In this document: positions 11,304-29,538 of the stretch, in pieces
Layout: every line of letters begins with the position of its first letter
Numbering within the stretch: the stretch's first letter is position 1
Assembly (NCBI GenBank): GCA_963692865.2
Contig: OY843592.1
Location: forward strand, 832,001 to 896,000
Direction of reading: 5' to 3'
DNA: 64,000 bases
Origin: a bacterium
Lineage (GTDB): Bacteria > UBA8248
The notes under the pieces: generated by a model
The model's input: the letters and a program-made list of their open reading frames with translations, nothing else
What the model was told of the DNA's origin: nothing
Database searches by the model: none
Translations under genes and position numbers: made by a program

Positions 11304-11384
11304 TCAACCTTTCGGCTTCTTGCGTTCGAATATGACGTCATAGCGCCGAATGCCGTAGAAGTATTTCCCGGCTTCAAGACGCAT
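11304..11384 (-). pseudogene. Remnant of HepT/DUF86-like toxin
   Basis: ATG overlaps the MNT 3' end; 26-aa peptide MRLEAGKYFYGIRR... resembles DUF86 N-termini, then stops. Confidence 0.5.
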
Positions 11385-11682: not shown

Positions 11683-11702
11683 CGTTCCTCCCCCACGTTT
11701 CT

Positions 11703-11948
11703 TCAGTTGGACGTGCGGCGGAGAACCAGCGCCTCGACGACCTCGGCGCCCTCCGGGGTATCTTCCGCCGGATAGGGCGGGTCTCCGTGCCGACCCTCCC
11801 ACTCGTGCTTCCCCGTGTTCAGACTGATCTTCATCGTGGATATCCGATCCGGCGTCAGATCGTCGTAGCCTTCTTCGTAGCCGTTCACCACGACGCGCAG
11901 GTCTGCGGGGTATCGCCGAAGCGTTTCGATCAACTCGCTGACCAACAT
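11703..11948 (-). CDS. Small hypothetical protein (81 aa)
   Basis: MLVSELIETLRRYPADLRVVVNGYEEGYDD; RBS AGGAGAG; co-oriented within the R-M operon. Confidence 0.7.
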   Translation of the reverse strand: MLVSELIETLRRYPADLRVVVNGYEEGYDDLTPDRISTMKISLNTGKHEWEGRHGDPPYPAEDTPEGAEVVEALVLRRTSN

Positions 11949-11959
11949 GTATGCTCTCC

Positions 11960-13513
11960 TCACATCGGGTATCCCAACATCTTCAGGTTCCCGGCGATGG
12001 CGGCGTCCAGTTTCGCGCCCTCTTTCTGTTGCTCGCGAAGCTCGGCGGCGAGGCGCTTCATTTTTTCATCGAACGGCTCGGTATCTTCTTCCTGCGCCTC
12101 CGCGCCCACGTAGCGGCCGGGCGTCAGCACGCAGCCGTGCTTTCGCACCTCGTCAATGCTCGCGCTCTTGCAGAAGCCCGGAACGTCGGCGTATTCCTCG
12201 CCGCCGCGCCAGGCATGATAGGTATCGGCGATACGCGTGATGTCTTCTTCCGTCAACTCGCGGTGGGTGCGGTCGACCATGCGGCCCAGCTTGCGCGCGT
12301 CGATGAAGAGGATTTCGCCGCCTCGCTTCCTCTCCCGCGCTAGGAACCACAGGCAGGCGGGAATCTGCGTCGAATAGAAAAGCTGCCCCGGCAGGGCGAC
12401 CATGCAGTCCACGAGTCCCGCCTCGATCAGATTCTTGCGAATCCCGCCTTCGCCCGACTGGTTCGAGGACATCGAACCGTTGGCCAGGACGAAACCCGCG
12501 GCGCCGCCCGGCGCCAGATGATGAACCATGTGCTGCACCCAGGCGAAGTTGGCATTGCCCCTGGGCGGGACACCGTACCGCCAGCGCTTATCATCCGTGA
12601 GCCGCTCGCCGCCCCAGTCGGAGACGTTGAAAGGGGGATTGGCGAGTATGAAATCCGCCTTTAAGTCGGGATGGCGATCGTTGTGAAAGCTATCCCCATG
12701 AGTGATCTGCCCCTCGATGCCGCGAATGGCGAGGTTCATCTTCGCGAGTCGCCAGGTCGTGTAGTTCGACTCCTGGCCGTAGATGCTGATGTCGCCGCTT
12801 GCTCTGCCTCCATTGCCGTTGCCGCTGGCGTGCGCATCGATGAACTCGACCGACTGAACGAACATGCCCGAGGAGCCACAGCAAGGGTCGTAGACCCGGC
12901 CTTTGTAGGGCTCGAGCATTTCGACCAGGAGCTTTACGACGCAGCGCGGAGTGTAGAATTCCCCACCCTTCTTGCCCTCCGCGCTAGCAAATTGTGACAG
13001 AAAATACTCGTAGACACGACCAAGCACATCCTTGGATTGAGCGTCTGCATCATTGGCTTGGATGTTACTGATGCGATCAATCAACTGGCCGAGACGTTCC
13101 TTGTCGAGCGCGGGGCGGGCGTAGTCCTTGGGCAGCACGTCCTTGACAGCGGGGTTCTCACGCTCGATCGCCGCCATTGCGCCATCGACGATTTGGCCGA
13201 TGGTGGGCTGCCGCGCCTGGGCCTTGAGATTCGCCCAGCGCGCCTCTGGCGGAACCCAGAAGATGTTCTCGGCGATGTATTCGTCACGATCCTCTGCGGC
13301 GTTTTCACCCCATTCAGCGAGAATCTCCGCGCGGCGTCCCTCGAAAGCGTCGGAAATGTATTTTAAAAAGATGAGGCCCAGGACGACGTGCTTGTATTCG
13401 GCGGCATCCATTGAGCCGCGTAAGTTGTTAGCCATTTGCCAGAGTTCGTGCTCATAGCCCGTTACGGCTCCGCTGCCGGGTTCCTGGGTCTTTTTCGATG
13501 CTTTTCGCGCCAT
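11960..13513 (-). CDS. hsdM: Type I R-M methyltransferase subunit M
   Basis: [25 protein letters not shown] (m6A motif IV). Confidence 0.97.
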
Positions 13514-13743
13514 GGTTCCTTCATCCCTTTTGCCAAGCGTCGTCAATAGATATGCAATTCGCCCCCGCGCAGTTTACAAACCGGGGCGGTGGTTGTCATC
13601 CGGGGAATCGGGTGAGGCGGAAGCGGTATTGCTGGCTGAACGATTCCTGCTTTCATTGGATTGTTGAAAAAGTCCACTTTTCAGTAGGTAGAAGAGATGC
13701 CCCCCTCGGCTGGAAAAGCAACCCCCCCTACCCCCCTTTTTCA

Positions 13744-13952
13744 GGATTGTTGAAAAAGGCCATGTATCCCCTCGGTCGGCGATGTGATGATCCAGTAGGG
13801 ACAGGCCCCCGCGCCTGTCCTGCTACGCAAAACGTGATGGTATTGTAGGGGCCGTATAGTATGCGGCCCTGATTTTCGCCTCCACAAAGCGGGCCGCATA
13901 CTATGCGGCCCCTACGAACAAATTGTCTCTCTCCGGCTTTTTCAACAGCCCC
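13744..13952. mobile_element. MITE-like composite element carrying REP palindromes
   Basis: Ends GGATTGTTGAAAAAG and CTTTTTCAACAGCCCC; homologous reverse copy at 29238-29418; partial copy at 36939-37059. Confidence 0.7.
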
Positions 13953-15319: not shown

Positions 15320-15370
15320 GGGAAGCGCCCGGGAATAATAAAAATTATCGATATCATGAAAATAGCAATT

Positions 15371-15419
15371 TCTGAAAATATGTATAAAATTGGATAAATT
15401 CACGGGGTTTTTCGATAAA
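15371..15419 (+). repeat. Left copy of a 49-bp AT-rich long-range inverted repeat
   Basis: TCTGAAAATATGTATAAAATTGGATAAATTCACGGGGTTTTTCGATAAA; 47/49 identical to the reverse complement of 28628-28676. Confidence 0.9.
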
Positions 15420-15484
15420 AAACGGGCAATTTATCTTATTGAATATGAAGGCGTTATCCCGATTTCAGCGATCAGGAGGCCGCC

Positions 15485-16069
15485 ATGGACACAGTTGCAA
15501 CCCCCATCACCCGCCTCGCGGAAGACCTTGCGGGCGTCTACGATCACGGCGCCCGCGGCCGGGAGTTCATCCGCGCCGCCGAACCCGCTCTCAAGCGCTT
15601 GCTGGGCGCGGGTTCCTTTCTCCCGCCCGAGGCGCTCGAACCCTCCGATGAAGGATATGCGCGTCATCTGTTGTACCGCGACCCCGGGGAGCGCTTCGTC
15701 GTGGCGGCCATGGTGTGGAAGCCCGGCCAGGGCACGCCGATTCACGATCATGACGGCGCCTGGGGAATGCTCGGCATGGTGGAGGGCGGTCTGGAAGTCG
15801 TTAATTATTTTGCGGATGCGGAGATTGCCGAGGGTGAAGTCACGCTCAGGAGCGATGCGCCCCACAACCCTTCGGCAGGCGCACGGGATTCGGTTTGCGG
15901 CTGCGCGGACATCCATACGGTGCGCAACCGGCGCGGCGACGTGGCGGTTTCCATTCACGTGTATCCGCGCGATTTGGAAGCGTGTCATTTCTTCGAACCC
16001 ATGGCCGGTGGAGAAAATCGCTTCCGCGCGCGCCGCGTCTCGATTTCCTACACGGGCGAGTCTTCCTGA
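15485..16069 (+). CDS. Cysteine/thiol dioxygenase family protein
   Basis: YARHLLY, WKPGQGTPIHDH, DIHTVRN, SIHVY. Confidence 0.85.
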   Translation: MDTVATPITRLAEDLAGVYDHGARGREFIRAAEPALKRLLGAGSFLPPEALEPSDEGYARHLLYRDPGERFVVAAMVWKPGQGTPIHDHDGAWGMLGMVEGGLEVVNYFADAEIAEGEVTLRSDAPHNPSAGARDSVCGCADIHTVRNRRGDVAVSIHVYPRDLEACHFFEPMAGGENRFRARRVSISYTGESS

Positions 16070-16286
16070 GCGATTTCCGAACTACGACCAAAAAGCCATA
16101 GAATCAGGTGGAAAATCGAGAAACGGGGTTTCTTTGCTCGCGCTTTGCGAGGTCTCAAGTCCGGTGGTTTGCCGAGCGGGCGGGGTGCGGCTTATCGGCC
16201 AATCCTTCAGCAGGAGAATGAAACATCGTTTTCCCGGATTGACAAGATTCCTTGCATAAATCCACTTCTCATCCAAAGAGGTTTAT

Positions 16287-17150
16287 ATGCGCGGCAAAGG
16301 CGGCTGGTATGCTGGTTTCGAGGCTGTATCGAATTTTCAAATGTTCTTTCGGGACTGGAGGCCGGCCGGGAAAGGCGTGTTTTTGCCCGTTATCGCATTG
16401 CATGGCTCGCTGAGCCAGAGCGGCATGTGGAACGCTGTGGCGGAAGGCGCGGTTTCGATACGCATGGTATGTCCGGATCAAAGAGGATACGGGAGAACGG
16501 ATGACCCGGGTGGAAGTGATGCCGCTGCGGATTTCGCCAGGGACGTGATTGGCCTCGCCGACGCGCTTTTGCTGGACCGTTTCGTGGTGATGGGGCATTC
16601 CTTCGCCGGTTCAATCGCCCTGGCCGTCGCGGCGAAACGTCCGGAGCGCGTCGCCGCGACCGTGTTGATGGATCCGGCGGTTGGCGTTGACTCGGACGCC
16701 GATGCGAACCTGGAAGCGGCGCGGAATCGGCCGATGGAGTTCAAGAATCTCGCGCAGGCGCAGAAATTTCTCACGGAGAATGAAGAAGGACATTGGCCGC
16801 CTGCCCGGACGAGGCGGTTCTTAAGCGATGTTTTGGCGTGCGATGGATCAAATGGCGTTTGCAGGGTTCCTTATGAGAAAGATAGATTTCTGAGGCTGCG
16901 GGAATTTCAGGCCTCCGCCGAGAACGATTACGACCCCGTTTCTTGGGCCGAGAGGACAAAGTGCCCTTCTCTGGTGTTTCGTGGAGGAGAAAGCAAGCGA
17001 TTCAGCGAGAAGTCGGAAAAATTACTGGTGAATGCGCTATCCGCGAAATCAAGAGTGGTCGTGTGTGCGAAAGCCGGTCATTTCCCGAGCGTTTCGGAGC
17101 CAACCATCGTGCAGCGAGAACTCAAGGCGTTTTTGGCAGATCTGAAATGA
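16287..17150 (+). CDS. Alpha/beta hydrolase
   Basis: LHG, PDQRGYG, GHSFAG nucleophile elbow, AGHF. Confidence 0.9.
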   Translation: MRGKGGWYAGFEAVSNFQMFFRDWRPAGKGVFLPVIALHGSLSQSGMWNAVAEGAVSIRMVCPDQRGYGRTDDPGGSDAAADFARDVIGLADALLLDRFVVMGHSFAGSIALAVAAKRPERVAATVLMDPAVGVDSDADANLEAARNRPMEFKNLAQAQKFLTENEEGHWPPARTRRFLSDVLACDGSNGVCRVPYEKDRFLRLREFQASAENDYDPVSWAERTKCPSLVFRGGESKRFSEKSEKLLVNALSAKSRVVVCAKAGHFPSVSEPTIVQRELKAFLADLK

Positions 17151-19357
17151 ACAAACGAAACGGCGACAATCTGCATATTGAGACCGAGCTCAGCCGGGAT
17201 TTAGGGCTCGCATCAGCACTATCTATCGGCGTCGGCACGATGATTGCGGCGGGTATTTTTACGTTATCCGGCCTTGCCGTCAGGGACGTCGGGTCATCGG
17301 CCGTCATCGCTTTTCTCCTTGCCGCGCTTGTCGCCGGGTTTACTGCGCTCACCTATTGCGAATTCTCATCTCTGTATCCGGAGTCCGGAGAAGGATATCT
17401 CTATGCGAGAAGAACGTTTCCTCCGCCACTTGCCTACCTTGTAGGGTGGACGTTGGTGCTCGGCTACACTTCTTCATGCGCCTTCTACATCAGCAGCCTT
17501 TCTTCTTATTTCAATGAATTTATCTGGCATTCGCCTTATGAGCAAATATCGGGAACCGTGGGACTCATCTGTCTCGTATTGCTTAATATCAAGGGAACGA
17601 AAGAATCGGCTCGTTTTCAAGTTCTCATTACCGCCGGAAAGGTCATCCTTTTGTTTTGGTTTGTTTATGGTGGGTTGGGGAATTTGGATACAAAAGCCCT
17701 TGTCGAGAGAATGACCACGGACATTCCAAGAATTGGCGCGACGGCTGGTTTGGTCTTCATTACTTTTTTCGGATTTTCGGCAATTGCGGCATCGGCAGGA
17801 GAAGTCGTGAATCCCACGAAGACAATTCCTCGCGCGATATTTCTATCTATGGCAATTGTGACTATTTTATATACTTTGGTGGTCTTCGTAATCATTACCG
17901 CCAACCTCACGGAATATACGGAAGCGGCGATGGGTAACGCGGCGCGTCTTTTCCTGGGTCCTATCGGCGGCATGGTGATCGTCGTAGGCGCGCTTTTCTC
18001 AATGATTTCCGCATCTAACGCATCGATTTTGGCGGGTTCGCGGGTTGTTTTGTCTATGGCGCAACTGGGACACTTGCCCTCTGGAATCGCCGCGATCAAT
18101 TCCGAAACGCGCACACCCATTATTTCACTTATTTTAGTAGGAGGAGCCATAGTTCTTTTTGCACAAAGTTTTCATTTGGAGAAACTAGCGCACTTCGCGG
18201 ACACTATTCTTTTGTTAGCGCTGATTTTGGTGAATCTGGCGCTCATCTATCACCGGAGGAAATTTCCAAACCTGCCGAGACCTTTCCGTGTTCCCTTCGT
18301 GCCGTTGTTGCCGCTTATGGGAATTACCGCAAATATATATTTACTCTCACTGATATTTCGGCACCCTGAGCCGGTTGTCATGGCCGCTCTATGGCTGATC
18401 GTGGGGATGCTCGGTTTCTTGGCCTGGAAAGGCTCTCAGGCCGAGGAGGAATTTCTGCCGGGTGAACCATCTCGCGTAGCGCAGGTCAACACTGAGGGGC
18501 AGGAGAGTGATTTCCGCGTATTGGTTCCCATTGCAAACCCGACAAACGTCGCCCCCCTGATAGATATGGCTTCGGCGATTGCCAAAGAAAATGACGGTGA
18601 AATCATCGCCATGCGGGTTGTATCTTTGCCTGAGCAGGCACCGACGAGTCGCGAGACTTCATACGTTGAACGAGAAAGAAGAATTTTGGAGCAGGCCCAT
18701 GTTCGCGCCAAAACGAATGGTGTCAAAATTAGTTCTTTAGTAACAATTGGGCGTAATCCGGCGCGCGCCATCCTGGAGACGGCGAGAGAGCGCTATTGCG
18801 ATCTGATTGTGCTTGGCTGGAAAGGTTATACTTCTACCGCAAATCGAATTTTGGGTGAAGTAGTGGATGATGTCGTGAATCTTGCGCGAGCGGACATCAT
18901 GTTGGTGAAACTTGTAGGTGAGATGAAACTAAAAAATATTCTTTTACCGACAACCGGGGGAATTCATGCGCGTTTGGCGGAGCGATACACGGCCCCGATC
19001 GCAAGCGCTTACAATGCCAGACTTGTTGTATCGACCGTTGTTTCTCCAGAAGCTGGAACAACTCATAAACATTCTATCGAACAAGGACTCAGTGAGGCGG
19101 TAGGGAGAATCAACGATGAGAGCAGCGTTCATGTGGAGAGCCGAATCATCACGCACAAATCTGTTTCCGTGGGAATTATCCAAGCGTCAGAAGAATATGA
19201 CGCCATTGCCATGGGTGCAGCTGGCGAGAGTTTCTATAAACAGATTCTTTTTGGTTCTATTCCTGAAAACGTTGCGAAACACACGGACAAAACCGTAATC
19301 GTGTATAAACAATATTCTCCAGTGAAAGCGTTGGTGGGACGAGTGATGGAAAGCTGA
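17147..19357 (+). CDS. APC-family amino acid permease fused to two universal stress protein domains
   Basis: IGVGTMIAAGIF, multiple TM segments, RPFRVPFVP; then VLVPIANP...DLIVLGW and ILLPT...GSIPENVA; ATGA overlap with the upstream gene. Confidence 0.9.
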   Translation: MNKRNGDNLHIETELSRDLGLASALSIGVGTMIAAGIFTLSGLAVRDVGSSAVIAFLLAALVAGFTALTYCEFSSLYPESGEGYLYARRTFPPPLAYLVGWTLVLGYTSSCAFYISSLSSYFNEFIWHSPYEQISGTVGLICLVLLNIKGTKESARFQVLITAGKVILLFWFVYGGLGNLDTKALVERMTTDIPRIGATAGLVFITFFGFSAIAASAGEVVNPTKTIPRAIFLSMAIVTILYTLVVFVIITANLTEYTEAAMGNAARLFLGPIGGMVIVVGALFSMISASNASILAGSRVVLSMAQLGHLPSGIAAINSETRTPIISLILVGGAIVLFAQSFHLEKLAHFADTILLLALILVNLALIYHRRKFPNLPRPFRVPFVPLLPLMGITANIYLLSLIFRHPEPVVMAALWLIVGMLGFLAWKGSQAEEEFLPGEPSRVAQVNTEGQESDFRVLVPIANPTNVAPLIDMASAIAKENDGEIIAMRVVSLPEQAPTSRETSYVERERRILEQAHVRAKTNGVKISSLVTIGRNPARAILETARERYCDLIVLGWKGYTSTANRILGEVVDDVVNLARADIMLVKLVGEMKLKNILLPTTGGIHARLAERYTAPIASAYNARLVVSTVVSPEAGTTHKHSIEQGLSEAVGRINDESSVHVESRIITHKSVSVGIIQASEEYDAIAMGAAGESFYKQILFGSIPENVAKHTDKTVIVYKQYSPVKALVGRVMES

Positions 19358-19433
19358 CCAAATCACACCGGTGTATTGACATGCAAATGCATGAGCATTT
19401 CGAGTAAGAGCAATTAAAATTTTTGTCGTTGAG

Positions 19434-20162
19434 GTGGTTCATTTGTCTAAAATGGTATCGAGTTCCATGGAAGCCGTTTCGGATATTCCCAGAGGCGCAT
19501 CGATTCTTATCGGCGGGTTTGGCATATGTGGAATGGCGCATAATTTGTGTAAAGCACTGAGCAAACGAAAAGGTGTCGGCGATTTCCATTTGATATCGAA
19601 TGCGGGTGGAATGGACGGTTGGGGCGTGGGCCTGATGTTTGAAAACCGTCAGATCCGCTCCATTATCGCCAGCCGTGTGGGTCCGGCGTGTAAGGCCTAT
19701 GAAGAGCAAGCCTTGGAAGGGAAAATCGAAGTTGAACTCTCGCCTCAAGGAACATTCACTGAACGAATTCGGGCAGGTGGAGCCGGCATCGGTGGTTTCT
19801 TTACACCAACGGGAGCAGGGACCGTCGTAGCAGAAGGAAAAGAAACGAGAATCATTGAAGGACGAGAACACATTTTTGAAGAACCTATTCGGGCGGATTA
19901 TGCTTTCATCAAGGCTTGGAGGGGAGACGAGAGAGGGAATCTGATATACAGAATGAGCGCGCGGAATTTTAATCCCATCATGGCCACTGCCGCCGAGGTG
20001 ACTATCGCTGAAGTAGAAGAAATTGTTTCCGTAGGTGAAATTGCGCCAGAAAATATACATACGCCAGGGATTTTTGTGCAACGGTTGGTTTTGGGCGAAG
20101 ACTTGGAGAAACCTATTGAAATTATGACGAATCGACCCCGAAGTAATCCTAGGGGGAGTTGA
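19434..20162 (+). CDS. 3-oxoacid CoA-transferase subunit A
   Basis: [49 protein letters not shown]. Confidence 0.93.
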
Positions 20163-20163
20163 A

Positions 20164-20826
20164 TTGCCTTTAAGTAGACACGATATTGCCAGGCGTGCAG
20201 CCATGGAAGTGCCCCGGGGGGGTTATGTAAATCTCGGGCTCGGCATACCCACGCTGGTGAGCAATTACATACCGGAAGAATACGGTGTCACCATCCACTC
20301 GGAAAACGGTGTCTTGGGTGTGGGCCCATTTCCATACGAAGGAGATGAAGACCCCGATTTGCTGAATGCCAGCAAAGAAACCGTGACGCTTATGCCTGGA
20401 GGTTCGTATTTTGACAGCGCTACGTCATTTTCCATGGTCAGGGGCGGGCATATAGACGTCACCATACTCGGTGCAATGGAAGTCGCTGGTAATGGCGACC
20501 TGGCGAATTGGGCGATACCAGGCAAGATGATATCTGGCATGGGCGGTGCTATGGATCTCGTCGTGGGCGCCCGAAAAGTTATCCTCACCATGGAACATGT
20601 TTCAAGGAGAGGGGCGCCTAAGATCGTAGAAGCGTGCACACTGCCCTTGACCGGCAAAGGCGTGGTGGATGTCATCATTACCGATCTAGCGGTTATTACG
20701 GTAGAGACTGGCGGACTCTTGCTGCGTGAACTCGCTCCTGGCGTGAATGAGAGTGAGGTGCGGGAAAAAACCGCTACGCCTTTACGTGCGGCTTCGAACT
20801 TGTGTGAAATGTTTGCGAATGTTTGA
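20164..20826 (+). CDS. 3-oxoacid CoA-transferase subunit B
   Basis: [15 protein letters not shown] (catalytic Glu), [16 protein letters not shown]. Confidence 0.93.
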
Positions 20827-20835
20827 GTTTCCATA

Positions 20836-21753
20836 ATGGTTGATCTTGAACAATACACTCGAGAATACCGGGGATTGATGCGCCAACACGCCTATCGACT
20901 CACAGGCAACGTTTTGGATGCAGATGATATCGTGCAAGATACAATGTTGCGAGCGATTGAAATGGGCTCGGCTCTCGAGAATATCGATGATCACCATGAG
21001 TGGCTCTATTCCGCATGTACAGAAGAGGCGCTTTCTCGATTACGAGAGAGAAAACCTTTGCAGTTGAATGAATTCGACCTTCCTGATTTGGTCCAGACTG
21101 CAGACTCAAGCACGAACGGAGAGATCCAATCCATAGAGGCTAGCTCTGCATGGCCAAGCGTTGCGATCGAGTTTTTATTCCCCCTCCAATACATGACGCC
21201 CGAACAGCGCGTTGTTGTCGTGCTCAGGGATGGGGTAGAGGATGGTGACCGGATTGCGGCATCCGCAATGGAAATCAAAATTCAAGAGGTTTTCAAAATT
21301 GCCGACAGTGCGGATAAAAAACGAGCTCAAATTCAAAAATACTGGGAGAGAAATGTTTTTTTCGCCTCCACCAAGAATCAGACCCAGGCAGCGCGAGTGT
21401 TCGAGCGATTCGTGGAGGCGCTTGGTTTTCGAGACAAAGTGTTGTTGCAAGGACTAATGGCGCCGGATGTAGAGCTTATCGTCCGAGATGAGCGGAGAAC
21501 GGGTGACGATTTTGTGGCTGTGGCTTGCACGGAGTTGCTCGGCCAGATGGGGGAAAAGCTGACATTCAGCCCTGTTTGGTTTAACGGTTGTCGGGGCGTT
21601 CTGATCTGGACGTGGCGAACAAGAAGAAACGAATGGCTAAAATGCGGCGCCGTCACGGTTTTAAGTGATAATTCGAACATAAAAGCAATGAAATGGTATT
21701 TGGATGGACATCTTTTGCGCGCTATTCATACCGAAGCGCCCCAAGCTTCTTGA
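20836..21753 (+). CDS. Divergent ECF sigma-70 factor with C-terminal SnoaL-like extension
   Basis: HAYRLTGNVLDADDIVQDTMLRA (region 2), LQYMTPEQRVVVVLRD (region 4), ERFVEA...LMAPDVEL...FNG tail. Confidence 0.7.
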   Translation: MVDLEQYTREYRGLMRQHAYRLTGNVLDADDIVQDTMLRAIEMGSALENIDDHHEWLYSACTEEALSRLRERKPLQLNEFDLPDLVQTADSSTNGEIQSIEASSAWPSVAIEFLFPLQYMTPEQRVVVVLRDGVEDGDRIAASAMEIKIQEVFKIADSADKKRAQIQKYWERNVFFASTKNQTQAARVFERFVEALGFRDKVLLQGLMAPDVELIVRDERRTGDDFVAVACTELLGQMGEKLTFSPVWFNGCRGVLIWTWRTRRNEWLKCGAVTVLSDNSNIKAMKWYLDGHLLRAIHTEAPQAS

Positions 21754-21905
21754 ATCTTGAAACTTCGCGTCGGGACAACAGAAGTCTTCAAACCAAGTGG
21801 TTGAGCAACCAAAAGCACTCATCTCTGTTGCGTAACCAAGATTTATATTGCGCCGTCCGACCTCTCTGGATTTTTCAACCATCCCTATCCAAACGGTAGG
21901 CATTA

Positions 21906-24161
21906 TTATTTGTTTTCAGTAATTTTTCCGAGCGCCTTGCATATGTGGTGCGGACCCACCGGGATCTCGAAAAATCGAATTCCCACCGCATCGGCGATGG
22001 CATTCATGATGGCCGCGGGAGCAGCGAGTATGGGTGGTTCACCGACGCCCCTCATGCCATAAGGCGTATCATCCGCTTTGTTCTCAATCATTACAGTTTT
22101 CAGTTCAGGAACATCCATGCTGGTGGGTAAAAGGTATTCATGGAGAGTTCCGCCATGGATATTGCCAGTCCGGTCACGAGGTTGTTCTTCCATTAGCACC
22201 AAACCGATTCCCTGAAGCATCCCGCCTTCCATTTGGCCGATCACCGAGATTGGATTCATCGCAAAACCCACATCCTGCGAACAAGTCAGCCTCAAAACTT
22301 TTACCTCGCCCGAATCCATGTTTACGGCCACTTCCGCTATCTGCGCCGTGTAGATGGGGCAAGGCTCCGGCGCCTGTGTTTCCCCTTGGCCCATGATATA
22401 ACCTGAAATCCCAGGGGCCGCTTTCGCTATTTCGTTTAGTGAAATGGTTCGTTCGGGTGTGGATTGCGAGAAAACGCGCCCTCCTTCAATCGTCAGATCA
22501 GCTGGATCGGCTTCAAGTTTCTCAGCGGCGATAACTCGAATTTTTTCTTTCAAGTTGTTTATGGCAACGATAACGGCGGCACCCATCGAGCGGGTTACCA
22601 TACTGCCTGCCGCGCGAACCGATTCAGGCGCGGTGTCGGTATCGCCGCTGTCGAAAGACACTCGCTCGATGTCGATATCCATTTCTTCCGCAGCAATTTG
22701 GCGCATTGAGGTTGTTGCTCCCGTGAGGTTCACGGAGCCACTGAGGAGTTGGACGCTTCCGTCCGCGTTCAGACGTGCTGTACATGCAGAAGCTCCGCCG
22801 TTTCCGCGCCAAAAGCTAACGGCAAGGCCTCGACCGAATTTCCAGCCGGAGCCTTCTAAATTCACGTTCGTCTTGATGGTGTCGCCCCAGTTTCCTTCTT
22901 TGGCGATGCTTTCCAAAACTTTGATCATACCGTCGTCTTTTTGCATCCCGAATAATCCGACGTCGCCTTTGCGGATGGCGTTTTTTCGCCTGATTTCAAG
23001 AGGGTCGATACCTAACTCGCGCGCAATGATGTCGAGATGCACTTCCGTTGCGAAGAAACACTGAGGGCCACATGGTCCTCTTACCGAGCCGCATATGGGC
23101 CCGTTGGTGTAGACGCTCACCATTTTCACGGAAGAATGAGGGATATTGTAGCAGCTAGTGAACATCGGAATGCGAGAACTCGCCTGAGTCGGAGCGCCGG
23201 GGCCATATGCGCCATGGTCGACAATGATGTCCGCTTCGCGCGCTATTATAGTGCCATCAGAGGTTACCCCTGTTTTTAATTTTATTCGCAATCCTTGTCT
23301 GGGGCTGATGCCATTATGGTCGTCTTCACGCGTCATCTCGTGGCGCACGGCTCGCCCGCTTTTGAGAGCAAGCAATGCAATGATGTGTTCGATAAACGAA
23401 TGAATTTTCCCTCCGAATCCACCACCGATTTCTGTGGGGATGACTCTGACTTGCGAGAGCGGAACGCCTAGCGCCTCGGCGACTTGTTCTCGGATAGCGA
23501 AAGGCGCTTGCGTTGTTGTCGAAATGGTGATTTTTCCATCGGCACCTGGTTCCGCCATGCAAGCATGGGGTTCGATATATCCAGAGTGCGCGTATGGAGT
23601 ATGAAATGTGTGTTCAAATATATGATCCGCCTTTTTCATTGCGGCATCCACATCGCCCATGGATTTTTCATAGCGACCAATCACATTTCCTTCTCCATTG
23701 GGACCTAAGCCTATTTTTTCCCAGTCTTCGTGAACAAGTGGGCCATTGCCATCGCGCGCCGCTAAAAGGTCCACCACGGGCTCAAGTACTTTGTAACGTA
23801 CTTCTATGGAGTCTAGCGCCGCTTGGGCGGCATCCATTGATTCCGCCGCAACCGCTGCAACAGGGTCTCCGATATATCGGACGTAACCATCACGGGCTAG
23901 CCAACAGATATCTTTGACCTCAAGCCCGAAATGGTGTGGGGGACAATCATTACCGATTAACACGGTCCGCACGCCGGGTATTTTTCTGGCTTTCTGCGTG
24001 TTTATGGAAATTATATTGGCATGTGGGTGTGGGCTTCTGAGTACCAAACTAACCAGGGGTTGGACGGTGGTAACGTCTGCCGCGAATTTGGCCGTGCCTA
24101 CAGCTTTATCTGGCAGATCATATCTGGGGATACTTTTGCCGGCTACTTTCAGTTCACTCAT
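21906..24161 (-). CDS. Xanthine dehydrogenase family molybdopterin-binding subunit
   Basis: LRSPHPHA, VRYIGDPVAAVAA, IGGGFGGK, GQMEGGMLQGIG, GVGEP. Confidence 0.93.
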   Translation of the reverse strand: MSELKVAGKSIPRYDLPDKAVGTAKFAADVTTVQPLVSLVLRSPHPHANIISINTQKARKIPGVRTVLIGNDCPPHHFGLEVKDICWLARDGYVRYIGDPVAAVAAESMDAAQAALDSIEVRYKVLEPVVDLLAARDGNGPLVHEDWEKIGLGPNGEGNVIGRYEKSMGDVDAAMKKADHIFEHTFHTPYAHSGYIEPHACMAEPGADGKITISTTTQAPFAIREQVAEALGVPLSQVRVIPTEIGGGFGGKIHSFIEHIIALLALKSGRAVRHEMTREDDHNGISPRQGLRIKLKTGVTSDGTIIAREADIIVDHGAYGPGAPTQASSRIPMFTSCYNIPHSSVKMVSVYTNGPICGSVRGPCGPQCFFATEVHLDIIARELGIDPLEIRRKNAIRKGDVGLFGMQKDDGMIKVLESIAKEGNWGDTIKTNVNLEGSGWKFGRGLAVSFWRGNGGASACTARLNADGSVQLLSGSVNLTGATTSMRQIAAEEMDIDIERVSFDSGDTDTAPESVRAAGSMVTRSMGAAVIVAINNLKEKIRVIAAEKLEADPADLTIEGGRVFSQSTPERTISLNEIAKAAPGISGYIMGQGETQAPEPCPIYTAQIAEVAVNMDSGEVKVLRLTCSQDVGFAMNPISVIGQMEGGMLQGIGLVLMEEQPRDRTGNIHGGTLHEYLLPTSMDVPELKTVMIENKADDTPYGMRGVGEPPILAAPAAIMNAIADAVGIRFFEIPVGPHHICKALGKITENK

Positions 24162-24373
24162 GGAGCCCTCAAAATGTATAGTGTATATGAGCGCTTCGTA
24201 TTTCGTGTTGACAATGTTGAGTCTTGTGGGATTTCAACCCCTAAAGAGATGCGATCATATCCCGATTGCGAATGGGTGCCGAAAACCCTAGTTTATCGTA
24301 TATATCGGAATAGCGACAGGTTGTGCACGCCAAGGACATATGACCAGAGGAAATGCCTTTAAGGAGAACACTT

Positions 24374-25252
24374 ATGCCTAATCCGATCCCACTGGGTGTT
24401 CTTGGGTATCCGGCAGGCCATATTTTGTCACCTGTATTACATAATAAAGCGGCTGAAGTTTTAGGCGTGAATTATCACTATCTTTCCTATGAAGTACACC
24501 CGGATTATTTAGAAGAAGCTGTGTGGGGAGCACGGGCGATGGGATTTCGCGGACTCACAATTACGATTCCGCACAAGGTGGCTGCCGCCAAGTTGATGGA
24601 TGAACTCAGCGAGGACGCCCGGTTGATGGGCGCTGTGAACACGATAGTTTTTGAAGAAGACGGACGCCTGATTGGTCACAACACGGATGGTGTCGGTTGG
24701 CTCCGATTTTTGGAGGAAACAACAGGAGAACATCCCAAGGGAAAAAAATGTCTTGTTTTGGGTGCGGGAGGGGCCGCGAGAGCCATTGCGGTCAAAATAG
24801 CTCAATGTGGAGCGACTCATCTCGAAATCAGAAATCGGACGCCTGAGAAAGCTTTGGAGTTAGCGCGCTTTGTGGAGAAAAGCATTCCTTCTTCTATAGC
24901 GACCGGCGGTGGCTTGAACGAGCTTTATTCGGCGGCTGATGGTTGTGGGATAATCGTGAATACAACAAGCCTCGGGATGTGGGGAGACACGGAACGTATG
25001 GCTACAAACCCTATTCCCGAAGACGCTATCCCGAAAGGTTGTATCTGTTCGGATGCAGTTTATATTCCACCTGATACGGAATTTCTAAAAGCAGCCGGAC
25101 GGTCTGGGGCTCAAATTGTTCGCGGAACGGGCTGGTTGGTGTATCAAGCAGCGGCTGCTTGGAAAATATGGACGGGAGTGGATATGCCTACGGATATAGT
25201 GATGGAAGTTCTACACGAAGCTTTGGAATCACGCCTAAGTGGCGAAGATTAG
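24374..25252 (+). CDS. aroE: Shikimate/quinate dehydrogenase (AroE family)
   Basis: LSPVLHN, TIPHK, GAVNT, HNTDG, LGAGGAARA, NTTSLGM; RBS AAGGAGA. Confidence 0.9.
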   Translation: MPNPIPLGVLGYPAGHILSPVLHNKAAEVLGVNYHYLSYEVHPDYLEEAVWGARAMGFRGLTITIPHKVAAAKLMDELSEDARLMGAVNTIVFEEDGRLIGHNTDGVGWLRFLEETTGEHPKGKKCLVLGAGGAARAIAVKIAQCGATHLEIRNRTPEKALELARFVEKSIPSSIATGGGLNELYSAADGCGIIVNTTSLGMWGDTERMATNPIPEDAIPKGCICSDAVYIPPDTEFLKAAGRSGAQIVRGTGWLVYQAAAAWKIWTGVDMPTDIVMEVLHEALESRLSGED

Positions 25253-25521
25253 CCGTCGAATGTTTGTCGCTTTTTTACACGTTCTTCACATGGTGTCGCC
25301 GCATCGTTGCCCAGCCACAAGTCCCATGCGCCGTGATGGCCGATATCCACGCCTTCTCTTTGAGCTTTTTGTTGTAGAGCGATTTGCAATTCATCCATGA
25401 ACTCGCTATCCATAAGCTCAAGATGTTCTCCAATATGGCGATGCAGTACTCTATATATTAGTTTCATATCCTCTACTGATGTCTCGAATGAATACGACTC
25501 GCCTTGTTCTGAGAAAGCCAT
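25249..25521 (-). CDS. Hypothetical protein (90 aa)
   Basis: ATG-initiated ORF with protein-like composition, downstream of mreB; no family recognised. Confidence 0.65.
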   Translation of the reverse strand: MAFSEQGESYSFETSVEDMKLIYRVLHRHIGEHLELMDSEFMDELQIALQQKAQREGVDIGHHGAWDLWLGNDAATPCEERVKKRQTFDG

Positions 25522-25692
25522 TTTTTTCCTGTGAAATAAAGGATTTTGAAATGGGGCGGATAAACCTATCCCATTTTAACTGATTATTGTTGATAATAAA
25601 ATCTCGCTACAGTGATTCTATGCGGGGAGGGCCGGGAGCCCGGTATTGCGCATGGGGCCGGGCCCCCGGCTGGGGGGTGGTGCTCGTGAAGA

Positions 25693-26730
25693 TCAGTTCA
25701 GACACACTTGCTTGAAATCTTTTAAGTGGTCTAGTACGTGGCCAGTTCCACGGACGACTGTGGTCAGTGGGTCTTTTACTCTATAAATTGGAAGGCCGGT
25801 CTCATCATGGAGCCTCGTTCCGAGTCCTTTTAAGAGTGAACCCCCGCCCGCTAACACGATTCCTCGTCGGTAAATATCCGAAGCGATCTCGGGACTCGTT
25901 TTGGCCAGAGCTTTTTTGATGGATTCAACCATGGCTTTTATGGGACCGTCGAGAGCTTCTCGCACCGATTCATCGGTCAGCTTGATGGTGCGGGGCAAGC
26001 CAGTGGAAACGTCTGCGCCTGAAACTTCCATTTGAAGCGGCTCGGAAAGCGGGGCTGCTGATCCAATCTCCATTTTGACGCGTTCGGCCTCGAATGAGCC
26101 GATCGATAGACCGTGGTGTCTTTTGATATAGCGTTGGATGCATTCGTCCATGGCGTCTCCCGCCATGCGCAGAGATTCCGAATATGCAATGACGTACTGG
26201 GAGATGACGGCCATTTCGGTTGTTCCTCCCCCGATATCGACTATCATGGAGCCTGCGATTTCATGAATCGGAAGTTTGCTTCCAATGGCCGCCGCCATGG
26301 GTTCTTCAATTAGATGGACCTTGCCGGCCCCGCATTGGGTAGCTGAATCGATCACGGCTTTCATTTCGACACTGGTAATTCCCGAGGGAACGCAGACCAT
26401 CATTGTAGGTCGGCTGAAAGACCTTTTGGGCACGATTGCTCGAACGAAATGGCGAATCATGGCTTTGGTAACGTCGAAATCGGCGATTACCCCGTCTTTC
26501 ATGGGGCGAATCGTCCGAATCGAGCCTGAAGTCCGACCGTACATTTCCTTGGCTTTTTTCCCCACCGCGAGAACGCCTCCCCCGTTTTTTGAGTTCAAGG
26601 CGACAACAGAGGGTTCATCAAGAACGATTCCGGCATTTTTTGTGTAAACCAGAGTGTTCGCCGTCCCGAGGTCCATAGCGATATTGGGCCCCATCCAGGA
26701 TCTGAGGCGCTTCAAAAAATGAAATTTCAT
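25693..26730 (-). CDS. mreB: Rod shape-determining protein MreB-like actin
   Basis: MDLGTANTL, PMKDGVIADF, IEEPMAAAIG, VDIGGGTTE, LAGGGSLL. Confidence 0.95.
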   Translation of the reverse strand: MKFHFLKRLRSWMGPNIAMDLGTANTLVYTKNAGIVLDEPSVVALNSKNGGGVLAVGKKAKEMYGRTSGSIRTIRPMKDGVIADFDVTKAMIRHFVRAIVPKRSFSRPTMMVCVPSGITSVEMKAVIDSATQCGAGKVHLIEEPMAAAIGSKLPIHEIAGSMIVDIGGGTTEMAVISQYVIAYSESLRMAGDAMDECIQRYIKRHHGLSIGSFEAERVKMEIGSAAPLSEPLQMEVSGADVSTGLPRTIKLTDESVREALDGPIKAMVESIKKALAKTSPEIASDIYRRGIVLAGGGSLLKGLGTRLHDETGLPIYRVKDPLTTVVRGTGHVLDHLKDFKQVCLN

Positions 26731-28181
26731 GATTCATCTCCCCCCACAAAGCAAAGTTGATTTATCGCGCTCCCCTTTTGGGCGAACCCTAGTGCTTCAA
26801 GAGATAACCTGATAAGGCTTTTTGGGCTTCGAGCAGTTTCGGGGAAACATGCAGCGCCTATTGAAATTGTGATTTCGAACTCTTTTCCGCCGAGATGGAA
26901 GGGAGTGTGATGAACGACGTTGATTATTCGTTGCGCAACGGCTTCCGCATATTCCTGGGAGGAATCTCGCAATAACAAGAGAAAACGCGGCCCCTCATGC
27001 CGCACCAAAATATCATCTCCGGCAGCGAATTGTTTAAGCGAATTCGAGAGCTGAAGAATGACTTCTTCTTCGGACGTATTCTTGAATTCCGATGAAGCGT
27101 CGGGGGCGATGCTCAGCAAGGCGAGTTGGCGTCCTTTTGCGTCCGCCTCGCAGATGATTTCATGAAGGCGAGAATATAGATATTGTGCATTTTGCTCGCC
27201 GGTAAGAGGATCGATTTCTAAACGCGCTTGCCATCGCAACTCGTTTTTCCGGTTTGCAACGGCATCCGCCACCAGAGCCGCGATGATTTCTCCGCGCTGG
27301 ATGGAAGAAGCGTCAAATTGGGCCCGGCGTTTGCTTGTAAATCCCAGACAACCGAGAATTTCACCTCTTGAAGCGAGGGGAATGCATGCTGCGGAACGCG
27401 CTTCGAACCGAGGCTCGTCCTGATGGAAGAGAGGCCGGGTTCCTTTTTTCCCTTTCAGGTCCGTGAGCCTTAAGCTTTCTTTTTTGCTTAATACGTATCC
27501 CGCCAGACTCGAGCGTTCGCTGATGACGACTTCGCCCAGGAAGAGCTCCCCGAACCCCGAGGTTCGAACGAGGCGGGGGACGCCTGCTTCCTCGTCGATG
27601 AGAACGAGGAAGCAGGCGTCGAAGGGAAGCAATTCGCGCGGCACCTGACATACCGCATTCAACAATTGATCTTCGTTTTCGCTTGCGCGAAGCGAAGTCA
27701 GGTATCTGCCGAAGGCGGGAACGCTCATGGAGCGCCGCTCCGTTTGAACGCTCCTCAAGGCGCCGTCTGCAAGATAGGCGAATTGCTGGGCGAACCCCGC
27801 GAGAATTTTTTGGTCTCTGGACGTGAAACACCAGCTTTTCTTGCTGTCGATGGCGAGCGCCCCTTTATTGATCGATGAGGGCAGGGGAGTCGCCATGAAG
27901 GACTTGATATCCTCGTTTCTGCTGTAATAGCCGAGAACCAGGGTGTCTTTGTCGAACTGGTTGACGCTTAAGGGTTCGTTGTTCTCCAGAACCCAGCCCA
28001 TGAAGCCCTGTCCCACGTCGACCGAGGCGTCCGTGAGTATGTAGGGGCTGAGGCTGTGGTATGTGGTGAGCTGGTAGGTCTTGCGGCGTTTGTTTTCAAG
28101 GAACAGGCAGGCGGAGTAGGCTTCCGTCACGTTGCTGACGAGCGTGATGAGGGAGAAAAGGTCTCTTTCCAGATTCGTCAT
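26727..28181 (-). CDS. GAF-GAF protein with degenerate GGDEF domain
   Basis: Two GAF-like blocks; DPLTGEQN and ITISIGAACFP, but the signature reads RHEGPRF; stop overlaps the mreB ATG. Confidence 0.8.
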   Translation of the reverse strand: MTNLERDLFSLITLVSNVTEAYSACLFLENKRRKTYQLTTYHSLSPYILTDASVDVGQGFMGWVLENNEPLSVNQFDKDTLVLGYYSRNEDIKSFMATPLPSSINKGALAIDSKKSWCFTSRDQKILAGFAQQFAYLADGALRSVQTERRSMSVPAFGRYLTSLRASENEDQLLNAVCQVPRELLPFDACFLVLIDEEAGVPRLVRTSGFGELFLGEVVISERSSLAGYVLSKKESLRLTDLKGKKGTRPLFHQDEPRFEARSAACIPLASRGEILGCLGFTSKRRAQFDASSIQRGEIIAALVADAVANRKNELRWQARLEIDPLTGEQNAQYLYSRLHEIICEADAKGRQLALLSIAPDASSEFKNTSEEEVILQLSNSLKQFAAGDDILVRHEGPRFLLLLRDSSQEYAEAVAQRIINVVHHTPFHLGGKEFEITISIGAACFPETARSPKSLIRLSLEALGFAQKGSAINQLCFVGGDES

Positions 28182-28430
28182 TGCCGGCACCCAATGGGAC
28201 GGATTGGGACGTTGCGGAATATACCAAGGCCGGGAAATATATTTCAAGTAGTTTTTTCATTAGCATTCGTATCTGATTGTATTTATTGATTTTATGAGAA
28301 TTAAAAAAATGAGCCCCCTGAACGGAATTAAAGTGGTTTCTGCAATAATTTTTATAAACTATTGATATTTAACGGATTACTATTATGAAATTGACTCGCG
28401 AATTGGTTTCCGCCTCGTTGCGGCGAGGAA

Positions 28431-28478
28431 AGCCCACCTGTTGTGTGGGAAATCTTTTTGTGGAACTACATGTTGTGG
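28431..28478. promoter_or_regulatory. Tandem NrdR-box-like sites
   Basis: AGCCCACCTGTTGTGT (28431-28446) and GAACTACATGTTGTGG (28463-28478), 10/16 and 11/16 to acaCwAtATaTwGtgt, starts 32 bp apart. Confidence 0.45.
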
Positions 28479-28627
28479 TGTCCGCGGACGCCGGGCCGGG
28501 CGCCCGCACGGGATTTCACCCCCGCAATTCCCCGCATTTGCCGTTGCGCGCCCGCCTGGGGCGTCGTGGTATCCTCGCCGTGTTCCCTTCGCCGGAGGGG
28601 GAGTTGCGCCTCCGGGCGGCGCGGAAA

Positions 28628-28676
28628 TTTATCGAAAAACCCCCTTAATTTATCCAATTTTATACATATTTTCAGA
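28628..28676 (-). repeat. Right copy of the 49-bp long-range inverted repeat
   Basis: Reverse complement TCTGAAAATATGTATAAAATTGGATAAATTAAGGGGGTTTTTCGATAAA. Confidence 0.9.
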
Positions 28677-28710
28677 TATTCTTTCGGGGGCGGCGAGAGG
28701 GTTTCCCGCC

Positions 28711-29064
28711 CTAGCGCTCATACGCCTTGGTGGCGCTCACGGGGATCATGCAGACGAACTCCATGGTCTCGTCCGAATCGTTGTGGAAGGTGTGGTTCTC
28801 GCCCGGCGCCACGAATACGGCCGCGCCCGGCGCGATGGCCTCGGTCTCGCCCTCGACTATCACCCGCCCCTCGCCCTTGAGCATGAACACCTGATGCTCC
28901 CAGGGATGGGCGTGGTCGGGCGTCTGCCCGCCCGCCTCAATCTCGATGACCCGCATCGCCATTCCGGTCTCGCCGTCGCGCTCGCTGAGCAGCCAGCGGA
29001 TGCCCGCGCCCCTGGCCGCCTTCTCCGCCTTCAGTTCCGCGTCCTTGTAGTTCATCACCTTCAT
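28711..29064 (-). CDS. Cupin domain protein
   Basis: GGQTPDHAHPWEHQVF, VAPGENHTFHN; RBS AGGAGG. Confidence 0.88.
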   Translation of the reverse strand: MKVMNYKDAELKAEKAARGAGIRWLLSERDGETGMAMRVIEIEAGGQTPDHAHPWEHQVFMLKGEGRVIVEGETEAIAPGAAVFVAPGENHTFHNDSDETMEFVCMIPVSATKAYER

Positions 29065-29237: not shown

Positions 29238-29418
29238 GGGGCTGTTGAAAAAGCCGGAGAGAGGCAATTTGTTTGTAGGGGCCGCATGATCTGTCAGACA
29301 TATATGTCTGACCTACAATGCCATCGCGTTTTGCGTAGCAGGACAGGCACGGAGACCTGTCCCTACGGGATCATCACGTCGCCGACCGAGGGGATACATG
29401 GCCTTTTTCAACAACCCC
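29238..29418. mobile_element. MITE-like composite element, reverse copy of 13744-13952
   Basis: GGGGCTGTTGAAAAAG...CTTTTTCAACAACCCC with shared internal sequence. Confidence 0.7.
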
Positions 29419-29538
29419 CTCAAGGGGGGAGTGGTGCTCTTCTCTCTTGTCGGTCGGCAATGCCGTTCTGGGGCGAAGCCCACAGTCGCATCGGTAGGGT
29501 GTAAATCCGTTTCGATTTTTGCGTAGGGGTGTCGGGTT

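Follow-up and report, generated by a model that had tools for sequence, protein, structure and literature searches.

What is a 13.3-kb stretch of bacterial chromosome that is lower in GC than its surroundings, closed at both ends by inverted copies of one short AT-rich sequence, filled with housekeeping-like genes and free of any visible recombinase? The question is posed by the block at positions 15371–28676 of the DNA analyzed here, a stretch of 64,000 nt that we call the window (NCBI GenBank assembly GCA_963692865.2, contig OY843592.1, positions 832,001 to 896,000; GTDB lineage UBA8248). A sequence-only reading had described the block and offered three options for it: a replication terminus or other protein-bound domain delimited by polar sites, a segment inverted by an enzyme supplied in trans, or two coregulated, inward-facing promoters. 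We compared the genome under study (G000; an uncultured Nitrospinota metagenome-assembled genome of 4.15 Mb in 8 contigs, with contig C1 at 3.94 Mb) with 22 other genomes of the genus, the named relatives being uncultured Nitrospinota as well; the whole-genome analysis covers G000.

Sequence comparison makes it secure that the block is one instance of a genus-wide class, namely, conserved segments bracketed by convergent phased arrays, and nearly certain that both of its arms are vertically inherited members of a genus-specific array family. As to what the arrays do, we favor the tentative reading that they are putative cis-acting polar docking or boundary sites delimiting chromosomal domains, a proposal to which we would give somewhat under an even chance. 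For the original finding, the outcome is sobering: the block turns out to be neither island nor terminus nor invertible element, and other loci share the 49-mer at its ends.

The block and the array family at its ends

Three features define the bracket:
15366–15419, + strand: left copy of a dispersed AT-rich element of phased A-tracts (nhmmer family profile score 56)
28624–28680, - strand: right copy of the same element, inverted (profile score 49; holds an exact TCGATAAATT)
15420–28623, no strand: bracketed segment, an ancestral, repeat-poor GC trough (GC 0.516; collinear in 22/22 congeners)

Most of what had been described at the locus was borne out. The arms at 15371–15419 (+) and 28628–28676 (-) are identical at 47 of 49 bases in inverted orientation, and repeat finding widens the pair to 53 nt at 94% identity (15367–15419 and 28628–28680); the first 30 bases of the arm occur twice in the window against an expectation of 0. 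GC content is 0.516 in the block and 0.598 and 0.614 in the 10-kb flanks, with the drop at either edge spread over about 2 kb, in keeping with the gradual fall noted earlier. The interior, which had been called repeat-free, is nearly so: 14-mers with at least four genomic occurrences cover 64 of 13,207 interior positions versus 4,487 of 50,680 elsewhere in the window, and the sole dispersed repeat within the block lies at 28520–28545.

The notion that the 49-mer is a private bracket did not hold. The sequence-only reading had itself named recurrence of the 49-mer at many unrelated loci as the observation that would overturn it, and the 49-mer recurs at about 65 loci in the genome; the idea of a unique bracket is therefore refuted. 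The 30-mer, with up to 3 mismatches, is found at 10 places in the G000 assembly (0 for the reversed control) and the 49-mer, with up to 12 substitutions, at 63. A family profile search of G000 returned 78 hits at E up to 1, of which 65 score at least 33 and 62 of those lie on C1. The two copies in the window belong to a near-identical subgroup of six. Among relatives, 16 of the 22 congeners carry a 26-mer core of the family; a search of 18 genomes beyond the genus found it in none, and reversed controls gave 0.

Members of the family are AT-rich arrays of 55 to 100 bp built of phased A-tract units of 10 to 11 bp, such as TCGATAAATT and GGATAAATTC. When the copies are stacked, the outer edge is sharp, the core consists of 10- to 11-bp units (GGATAAATTC, GTATAAAATT, and then CACGGGGTTTTTCGATAAA), and the inner side continues into one of several alternative extensions, some of which are a second type of 10-bp array with AATTGCGGGG units. 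This second array, of AATGCGCGG / AATTGCGGGG units, lies about 100 to 150 nt inside many elements (e.g., G000 C1 1539270–1539460 and window 28519–28545), and core and second array together make a composite module of about 190 nt with about 10 copies. Another inner extension, with about 9 copies, holds TTGTAA ... TATAAAT at good promoter-like spacing, with a conserved leader of about 40 nt after it. One example is G000 C1 1546690–1546790 (9190–9290 of locus L014), where it is directed at the 3' end of a gpsA-like gene.

By sequence inspection, the elements carry A/T tracts of 3 to 5 bp at 10 to 11 bp for at least four turns. Tract centers in G000 are about 9 to 12 bp apart (mean, about 10.2 bp), while the arrays of one relative, G019, are made of 5 to 6 copies of units of exactly 10 bp. 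A/T tracts phased at about 10 to 11 bp give intrinsic curvature, and from this established knowledge the elements are predicted to be intrinsically curved DNA. The unit TCGATAAATT occurs exactly 37 times in the G000 genome, 30 of them in or beside elements (reversed control, 0); it is present in 27 of the 65 elements, and all 65 hold at least two units within 2 substitutions of it. Orthologous cores are 0.84 to 0.90 identical in 7 of 9 comparisons, versus 0.69 to 0.79 for third codon positions of the adjacent gene, a difference that would reflect either constraint or homogenization. RNA folding of the elements was no better than that of shuffled sequences (z = +0.6, 0.0, -0.9, and -1.0), and no palindrome, hairpin or terminal inverted repeat was found in them. 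Two generic approaches were set aside: a phased A-tract detector, which did no better on the real sequence than on its reversed control (19+19 versus 17+18), and a low-threshold Tandem Repeats Finder search for array families, which was too noisy.

Inward pairs, GC troughs, and their history in the genus

The strongest regularity of the family is the way in which its members face each other. Among adjacent copies on C1 less than 15 kb apart, 9 of 10 pairs read + then - (orientation-shuffle P = 5e-5), and random placement expects 3.2 such pairs (P = 0.002). Extending the limit to 25 kb gives 13 of 14 pairs in the +- arrangement, the exception being a - - pair (hand-computed binomial for 13/14 at p = 0.25, about 1.6e-7), and the nearest - + pair on C1 is at least 33.8 kb apart. 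Two single-contig relatives repeat the pattern, with 10 of 11 adjacent pairs below 25 kb in G020 and 10 of 10 below 40 kb in G019, the latter among the 100 of its 116 array hits that were listed. Weaker profile hits in G000 (scores 13 to 15) add three +- pairs within 27 kb, and no counterexample appears among the pairs listed by hand. Copies that neighbor each other at 4 to 25 kb thus almost always face inward.

Opposed polar sites, together with genes that converge at the locus, are what one would look for at a replication terminus or a fork trap with Ter-like sites. The cumulative GC skew of C1 has its minimum close to 0.70 Mb and peaks at about 2.52 Mb. The block, whose pair stands at C1:847366/860624 (0.85 Mb), is some 1.7 Mb away from the terminus that the skew indicates. 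Cumulative skew climbs through the window with no switch near 21.8 kb, and the same geometry recurs at no fewer than 13 places around the chromosome. We therefore give the terminus practically no credence. That part of the first option fell, and its wider part, a protein-bound domain delimited by polar sites, gains indirect support because inward pairing is genome-wide, GC troughs accompany it, and bracket positions are kept in relatives even where the motif has changed.

Composition follows the pairs. Mean interior GC over 13 brackets is 0.571, compared with 0.611 +/- 0.009 in random segments of the same lengths (P = 1e-4), and the bracket meta-profile is U-shaped, with a center of 0.546 to 0.551 between flat flanks of about 0.59 to 0.63. 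DNA 2 to 5 kb inside an end is lower in GC than DNA 2 to 5 kb outside it by 0.062 (17 of 20 ends negative; Wilcoxon P = 0.0008), and the central third of a bracket is lower than the flanks by 0.060 (10 of 13 brackets negative; P = 0.003). Repeated 14-mers make up 1.3% of brackets versus 4.5% genome-wide, a level that none of 5,000 random sets reached (0/5000). Unpaired copies have no one-sided trough (mean difference, -0.011; 20 negative versus 16 positive), orientation is not associated with GC across all copies (Wilcoxon P = 0.75), and housekeeping genes beside unpaired copies have a mean GC of 0.630 (11 genes) versus 0.573 inside brackets (18 genes). The trough is specific to paired copies.

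Judged by gene list, the genes that brackets enclose are mostly of a housekeeping kind. Other brackets in G000 hold gatA and gatB, groES and groEL, selA and selB, and serS and tyrS; the clusters plsX-fabH-fabD-fabF-rnc-smc-ftsY and nusA-infB-truB-pnp; and ksgA, lepB, lepA, eno, tkt, obg, proB, and aroA. A Pfam search of 134 crude open reading frames (ORFs) in and around the 12 other brackets found 0 transposases or integrases, and an Rfam search across 114 kb of other loci found one tRNA only.

An inverted repeat of 47/49 bases at both ends of a low-GC segment is also what a mobile or invertible unit would present, be it a transposon or island with terminal inverted repeats or a segment flipped in trans. 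The history of the block speaks against both forms. It is present and collinear in all 22 congeners at 72 to 86% identity by DNA search, including six without the repeat family, and in all 22 its left flank adjoins it in unchanged strand orientation. The earlier judgment that this is not a typical island is thereby upheld, and so is the absence of a recombinase or target duplication: in none of the 11 interior ORFs did Pfam match a transposase or integrase family, and the outer flanks differ from each other, with no sign of a target duplication. Inversion, the second option, is unsupported, with a left junction that is the same in 22/22 congeners and no recombinase in the block; no invertase was found in or beside the block, a search that did not extend genome-wide. 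The low GC is better read as drift in place of ancestral genes, as set out below, and we consider a mobile or invertible unit very improbable.

The sequencing reads do not bear on orientation. Four public DNA runs consist of short-read contigs that end at repeats (e.g., at 15395–15401 and 28647) and neither bridge nor invert the junctions, and many read "joints" at the block stem from repeat families. The contigs are deeper within the block than in its flanks, but depth there tracks GC, so the difference does not indicate copy number.

The ends of the block are conserved as array sites. Elements stand at both orthologous ends, always + and then -, in eight relatives (G020, G011, G008, G005, G022, G013, G014, and G006), the left copy of G005 being degenerate. 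Among the 10 repeat-bearing relatives examined, the left site holds a copy in 9 and the right site likewise in 9; in G002, a second hit lies beyond a rearrangement at the right site. The block of G004 has one element copy, and that genome has only 6 hits of the common core; its left site (L032) instead carries an array of 11-bp GTGAAAAATAG-like units, a third unit type there. In G002, G013, and G016, synteny stops exactly at the right element, with the cupin gene beyond it found hundreds of kilobases off or on another contig, and the elements therefore coincide with rearrangement breakpoints.

The same sites are occupied in G019 by a different motif. This genome is without the G000-type family and has exact 10-bp arrays, (GGGAAAACCC)5-6, at both ends of the block with the A-rich strand inward; the GGGAAAACCC family is dispersed, with 116 pattern hits versus 4 control hits. 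When the groESL, gatAB, lepA, and nusA-infB brackets were mapped to G019, all four were flanked by arrays of the G019 type in the + ... - geometry, so that 5 of 5 brackets tested have arrays at orthologous ends with the same polarity. On this comparison, bracket positions are conserved, and unit sequence is homogeneous within a genome and different between lineages.

One congener, G007, lacks both arrays and AT-rich DNA at the ends of the three brackets examined (window block, groESL, and gatAB) and offers a view of composition without them. Genome GC is about 0.686 in G007 and about 0.646 in G019, each estimated from three 20-kb samples, and 0.611 in G000 over the whole assembly. The window block ortholog has a GC of 0.705 in G007, 0.561 in G019, and 0.49 to 0.51 in G020, G011, and G008. 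Bracket GC minus genome GC is as follows:
Window block: G007 +0.02; G019 -0.085; G000 -0.095
nusA-infB bracket: G007 -0.067; G019 -0.069; G000 -0.084
lepA bracket: G007 -0.017; G019 -0.091; G000 -0.087
groESL bracket: G007 -0.011; G019 -0.058; G000 -0.009
gatAB bracket: G007 +0.004; G019 -0.072; G000 -0.006

Four of the five orthologous blocks are thus within 0.02 of genome GC in array-less G007, and all five are lower than genome GC by 0.06 to 0.09 in G019. By this measure the troughs are derived relative to G007, although the association is imperfect. Because the window block is a trough in array-bearing lineages and not in G007, its low GC points to drift in place of ancestral genes, not to foreign origin. 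The lepA bracket of G007 has its second half in inverted orientation at the same location (C1:2218674-2231909 against locus L020), with one breakpoint in mid-bracket and the other at the position of the right array of G000.

A derived trough of this shape could also arise by recombination. The arrays might be polar, Chi-like recombination-control sites read by an end-processing enzyme moving outward, with GC-biased conversion that decays inward and leaves a recombination-cold interior drifting toward AT. A U-shaped, graded trough with flat flanks would fit, as would a polar and paired geometry, troughs that are derived relative to G007, and a motif that differs between lineages, since Chi itself differs between species. 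Known Chi sites, however, are short single words, frequent and co-oriented with replication. The arrays are rare and show no replichore bias in strand (12+/18- and 15+/17-, counted from the listed copies and the skew extremes), and the reading is inferential throughout; we rate it as distinctly improbable.

Gene context of the arrays

The genes and further features in and around the block are as follows:
15485–16069, + strand: cysteine dioxygenase-like (CDO-like) cupin gene (PF05995, E 9.6e-10; AGGAGG before the ATG)
16287–17150, + strand: alpha/beta hydrolase gene (PF00561, PF12697)
16943–19357, + strand: amino acid permease fused to two Usp domains (PF13520, PF00582)
19434–20826, + strand: CoA-transferase subunits A (19434–20162) and B (20164–20826) (PF01144 in both)
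20836–21753, + strand: protein with sigma-70 region 2, the last + gene before the convergence point (PF04542)
21906–24161, - strand: molybdenum hydroxylase large subunit, aldehyde/xanthine oxidoreductase type (PF02738, PF20256, PF01315)
24353–25252, + strand: shikimate dehydrogenase, aroE-like (PF08501, PF18317, PF01488)
25249–25521, - strand: 90-aa ORF matching 0 Pfam families
25693–26730, - strand: MreB/Mbl gene (PF06723, E 2e-128)
26727–28247, - strand: GAF-GGDEF gene (PF13185, PF00990)
28519–28545, - strand: second-type 10-bp array of AATGCGGGG / AATTGCGGGG units, about 100 nt inside the right element; the same array type trails other family members
28711–29064, - strand: cupin gene beside the right element, with about 30 nt between element and stop codon (PF07883)
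13732–13952, + strand: outer GC-rich mosaic repeats of repetitive extragenic palindromic (REP) type, inverted relative to 29238–29429 (118 nt at 89%; 50 nt at 96%)
29238–29429, - strand: partner of these outer repeats (same two inverted matches, 118 nt and 50 nt)

Pfam agrees with the housekeeping-like cargo and the gene directions described earlier, which are + up to 21753 and mostly - from 21906. The left edge gene, previously taken for a hydrolase, is the CDO-like cupin gene. The coordinates of the permease-Usp ORF are those of its longest start, and the real start probably lies further downstream. In the 305-aa protein at 20836–21753, the sigma-70 region 2 match is confined to the first 73 residues and leaves a long C-terminal remainder without a family. 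Rfam gave no match, at E up to 1, in the 13- to 31-kb part of the window.

The directions of the edge genes recall the third option, in which the repeats act on transcription, either as curved upstream activating modules or as terminator-region elements of strongly expressed housekeeping operons. Both window copies lie upstream of inward operons, the left one 65 nt from the start of the CDO-like cupin gene and the right one about 380 to 440 nt from the AT-rich, promoter-like region of the GAF-GGDEF gene (site at 28247–28218). Phased A-tracts are known to activate when placed upstream of promoters. Copies elsewhere neighbor groESL, nusA-infB, recA, rho, the atp operon, and clpB, and in several convergent gene pairs the element fills the entire gap from one stop codon to the other. 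The family as a whole does not keep to such a role. Of 62 copies on C1, 24 lie between convergent genes, 13 between divergent genes, and 25 in tandem contexts, compared with 231, 419, and 840 of 1,490 intergenic regions of at least 120 nt genome-wide; copies are enriched between gene 3' ends. Element strand is unrelated to the direction of either neighbor (tandem contexts split 15 versus 10), and on the inner side lies a gene end for 39 copies and a gene start for 23. Neither window copy has a sigma-70-like promoter or a terminator-like hairpin with a T-run, the elements have no RNA structure, and a pure promoter or terminator role predicts neither inward pairs nor interior troughs. Inward promoters thus suit the gene directions at this locus and fail for the family, and a transcriptional explanation of the arrays is in our view unlikely.

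Two related candidates were examined and rejected. A sigma-54 or sigma-70 reading of the element misfit in spacing by eye, with no consensus inside the elements. The arrays of G019 could be drawn as terminators with CCCGGG-UUUU hairpins; z was no stronger than about -2, variation among units disrupts the palindrome with no compensating change, and a hairpin of this kind is absent from the G000 family. As to gene calls, 42 of the 62 C1 copies lie outside them and 20 overlap called ORFs, some of which are probably spurious because the AT-rich elements supply stop codons.

Further observations concern the surroundings of the block and of other copies. The pairing of the outer REP-type repeats may be due to chance, as their families are abundant. 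At window positions 1885–3404, every 14-mer of a 1.5-kb stretch occurs at least 4 times in the genome, and this is probably an insertion sequence or a multicopy gene; IS1595-type and IS110-type transposases were found beside other element copies. A low-GC stretch at 9000–13546 (0.48 to 0.49 at 9 to 11 kb) adjoins a type I restriction-modification HsdM gene at 11960–13546 (PF02384, PF12161) and looks more like a true acquired island than the studied block does. A further dip in GC, to 0.457, lies at 46 to 47 kb.

Putative boundary sites and their likeness to known systems

The account that competes most closely with a boundary role is that the arrays are selfish or neutral repeats, akin to REPs and bacterial interspersed mosaic elements (BIMEs) or to miniature inverted-repeat transposable elements. 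Their geometry and shared units would then be products of history, by inverted duplication, gene conversion, and homogenization, and the troughs an unrelated property of the gene clusters. Several observations agree with it. The enrichment between convergent gene ends (24/62 versus 231/1,490) matches a bias known of REP-type elements, the elements are joined to other repeat modules in mosaic composites, and further repeat families abound in the genome. Long flank identity links the members of 4 of 13 pairs, and the loss of synteny at the right element in G002, G013, and G016 is what recombinogenic repeats would give. Against it, the elements have no hairpin or palindrome, terminal inverted repeat, or target duplication; G000 has no REP-associated tyrosine transposase (RAYT, Y1 type); and positions are orthologously stable across species. 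History also leaves unexplained why 13/14, 10/11, and 10/10 close pairs are +- and none -+, why a different unit occupies the same sites with the same polarity, and why GC is depleted only on the side pointed to. We regard selfish spread as a possible but doubtful explanation. Even if it were the whole answer, strict polarity and one-sided GC depletion would still need explaining and would inform models of repeat dynamics and GC evolution.

We favor boundary sites because polarity, places kept under a changed motif, and a one-sided, graded shift in composition would not readily arise through selfish spread, promoters, or terminators. Under the boundary reading, a sequence-specific, oligomerizing DNA-binding protein, possibly aided by the curvature of the array, would mark both ends of a domain. 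Its action could take one of several forms: the two inverted arrays might be bridged into a loop, a DNA-tracking machine might be blocked in one direction, or a topological barrier might be set. The interior would be subject to a different regime of mutation or recombination and would drift toward AT. Motif and binding protein would coevolve, and therefore one unit would be shared by all sites of a genome and differ between lineages.

A bolder version holds that about a dozen domains of 4 to 25 kb are marked by convergent polar protein-binding arrays that would be a bacterial counterpart of convergent CTCF sites or insulators. The bound protein would pair the ends, or block SMC translocation (G000 encodes an SMC) or the diffusion of supercoils in one direction; the units, of TCGATAAATT type in most species and GGGAAAACCC in G019, would track the protein; and the distinct mutation and recombination climate of the enclosed loop would carve the GC trough over evolutionary time. 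We put this putative version on the unlikely side.

Several points weigh against boundary sites in either form. No trough is present in 3 of 13 brackets, and the groESL and gatAB brackets of G000 differ from genome GC by less than 0.01. In array-less G007, the nusA-infB block is already 0.067 under genome GC, and the genome values of G007 and G019 rest on the three 20-kb samples each. At the threshold used, 36 of 62 C1 copies are unpaired. In 4 of 13 pairs the two copies are best matched to each other and have long identical flanks, which could reflect inverted duplication or gene conversion and not function. The three genomes in which pairs were counted (G000, G020, and G019) are kin with largely orthologous brackets, so that they are not independent replicates, and the gene-context statistics rest on crude codon-usage gene calls made for this analysis. 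Nor was a protein partner found, in a search that left aside Lsr2, GapR, MvaT, Tus, and others. H-NS (PF00816) has 0 matches in G000, with a positive E. coli control, in a search that did not include analogues of the Lsr2, MvaT, or Rok kind; the copy number of HU/IHF (3 to 10) does not track the arrays; and no DNA-binding family recurs among 108 ORFs flanking the 36 unpaired copies. Finally, curvature alone is not polar and so does not supply a physical basis for the polarity.

As each other's match, the two copies of the window pair rank 8th and 4th. Two brackets, G000 C1:1369181-1383041 and 2043232-2057179, have long near-identical inverted duplications beyond the element (alignment scores of 265 and 149 over 300 nt).

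Domain boundaries in bacteria are usually credited to highly expressed genes and not to dedicated sites; polar, sequence-defined boundaries are central in eukaryotes and have only just been glimpsed in archaea. In the literature we found no description of paired polar arrays in bacteria, in a check that was not exhaustive; among the papers listed on Nitrospinota and symbiont genomes, no title or abstract refers to such repeats. What sets the present case apart is that three genomic signatures coincide: convergent array pairs, fixed positions with a changing motif, and a graded trough with repeat exclusion on the pointed-to side only. If boundary sites are the correct reading, the genus would be a comparatively tractable natural system, in which each genome has about 13 brackets, the motif comes in two variants, and array-less sister genomes (G001, G007, and G009) could serve as controls for the array-bearing ones (17 plus G019), and a route to how bacteria insulate segments and how folding feeds back on base composition.

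Among known systems, composite transposons and invertible segments share with the block the inverted repeats that bound a multigene segment; unlike them, it has no transposase or recombinase, no target duplication, and no polymorphism of presence or orientation in 22 congeners. Tus-Ter and RTP-Ter share opposed polar sites, but those flank a single terminus, while here there are at least 13 local brackets and none at the skew maximum. REP/BIME and REPIN-RAYT systems are alike in being short, dispersed, intergenic, multicopy repeats (65 copies here) enriched at gene 3' ends. The REPs and BIMEs of enterobacteria occur in tens to hundreds of copies with species-specific sequence and are proposed binding sites of gyrase and IHF. 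They differ in that REPs are imperfect palindromes that form hairpins, whereas the arrays are nonpalindromic phased A-tracts without a folding signal, and G000 gave 0 matches to RAYT (Y1 transposase, PF01797), for which 6 of 14 genomes served as positive controls. To our knowledge, REPs do not occur as inward pairs kilobases apart around GC troughs.

A closer likeness in sequence is to the H-NS nucleation sites of E. coli. The arrays share, in 27/65 elements, the exact 10-mer TCGATAAATT, which a preprint quotes as the high-affinity nucleation site of H-NS (10.1101/738146); the DNA they flank is AT-enriched, and a model in which H-NS nucleates and then spreads or bridges would suit a two-site domain. 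Unlike the H-NS system, G000 has no H-NS domain protein, the arrays are multiunit and polar, the enclosed genes are housekeeping and not foreign, and the G019 unit is not TCGATAAATT-like.

The likeness in arrangement is to paired, polar, protein-bound sites, namely, convergent CTCF anchors and the TrmBL2 roadblocks of Smc-ScpAB in Thermococcus kodakarensis; here, the convergent pairing is a feature of the sequence. In the archaeon, Smc stalling at TrmBL2 roadblocks correlates with A-tract content (PMC11840125). The binding of TrmBL2 is described as symmetric in structure, with dif as the site of the main boundary; the segments in the present genus, unlike that case, are 4 to 25 kb. The periodic A/T clusters (PATCs) of Caenorhabditis elegans have 10-bp periodicity and are proposed as mechanical insulators (10.64898/2026.08.08.743475). 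PATCs are eukaryotic, kilobase-scale, and derived from Helitron minisatellites, whereas the arrays measure 50 to 100 bp, have conserved G/C positions, and keep strict pairing and polarity. What PATCs and the arrays have in common is A/T tracts with a 10-bp period, which encode curvature, and a proposed boundary role exerted through the mechanics of DNA. Both the Smc/TrmBL2 and the PATC analogies are distant.

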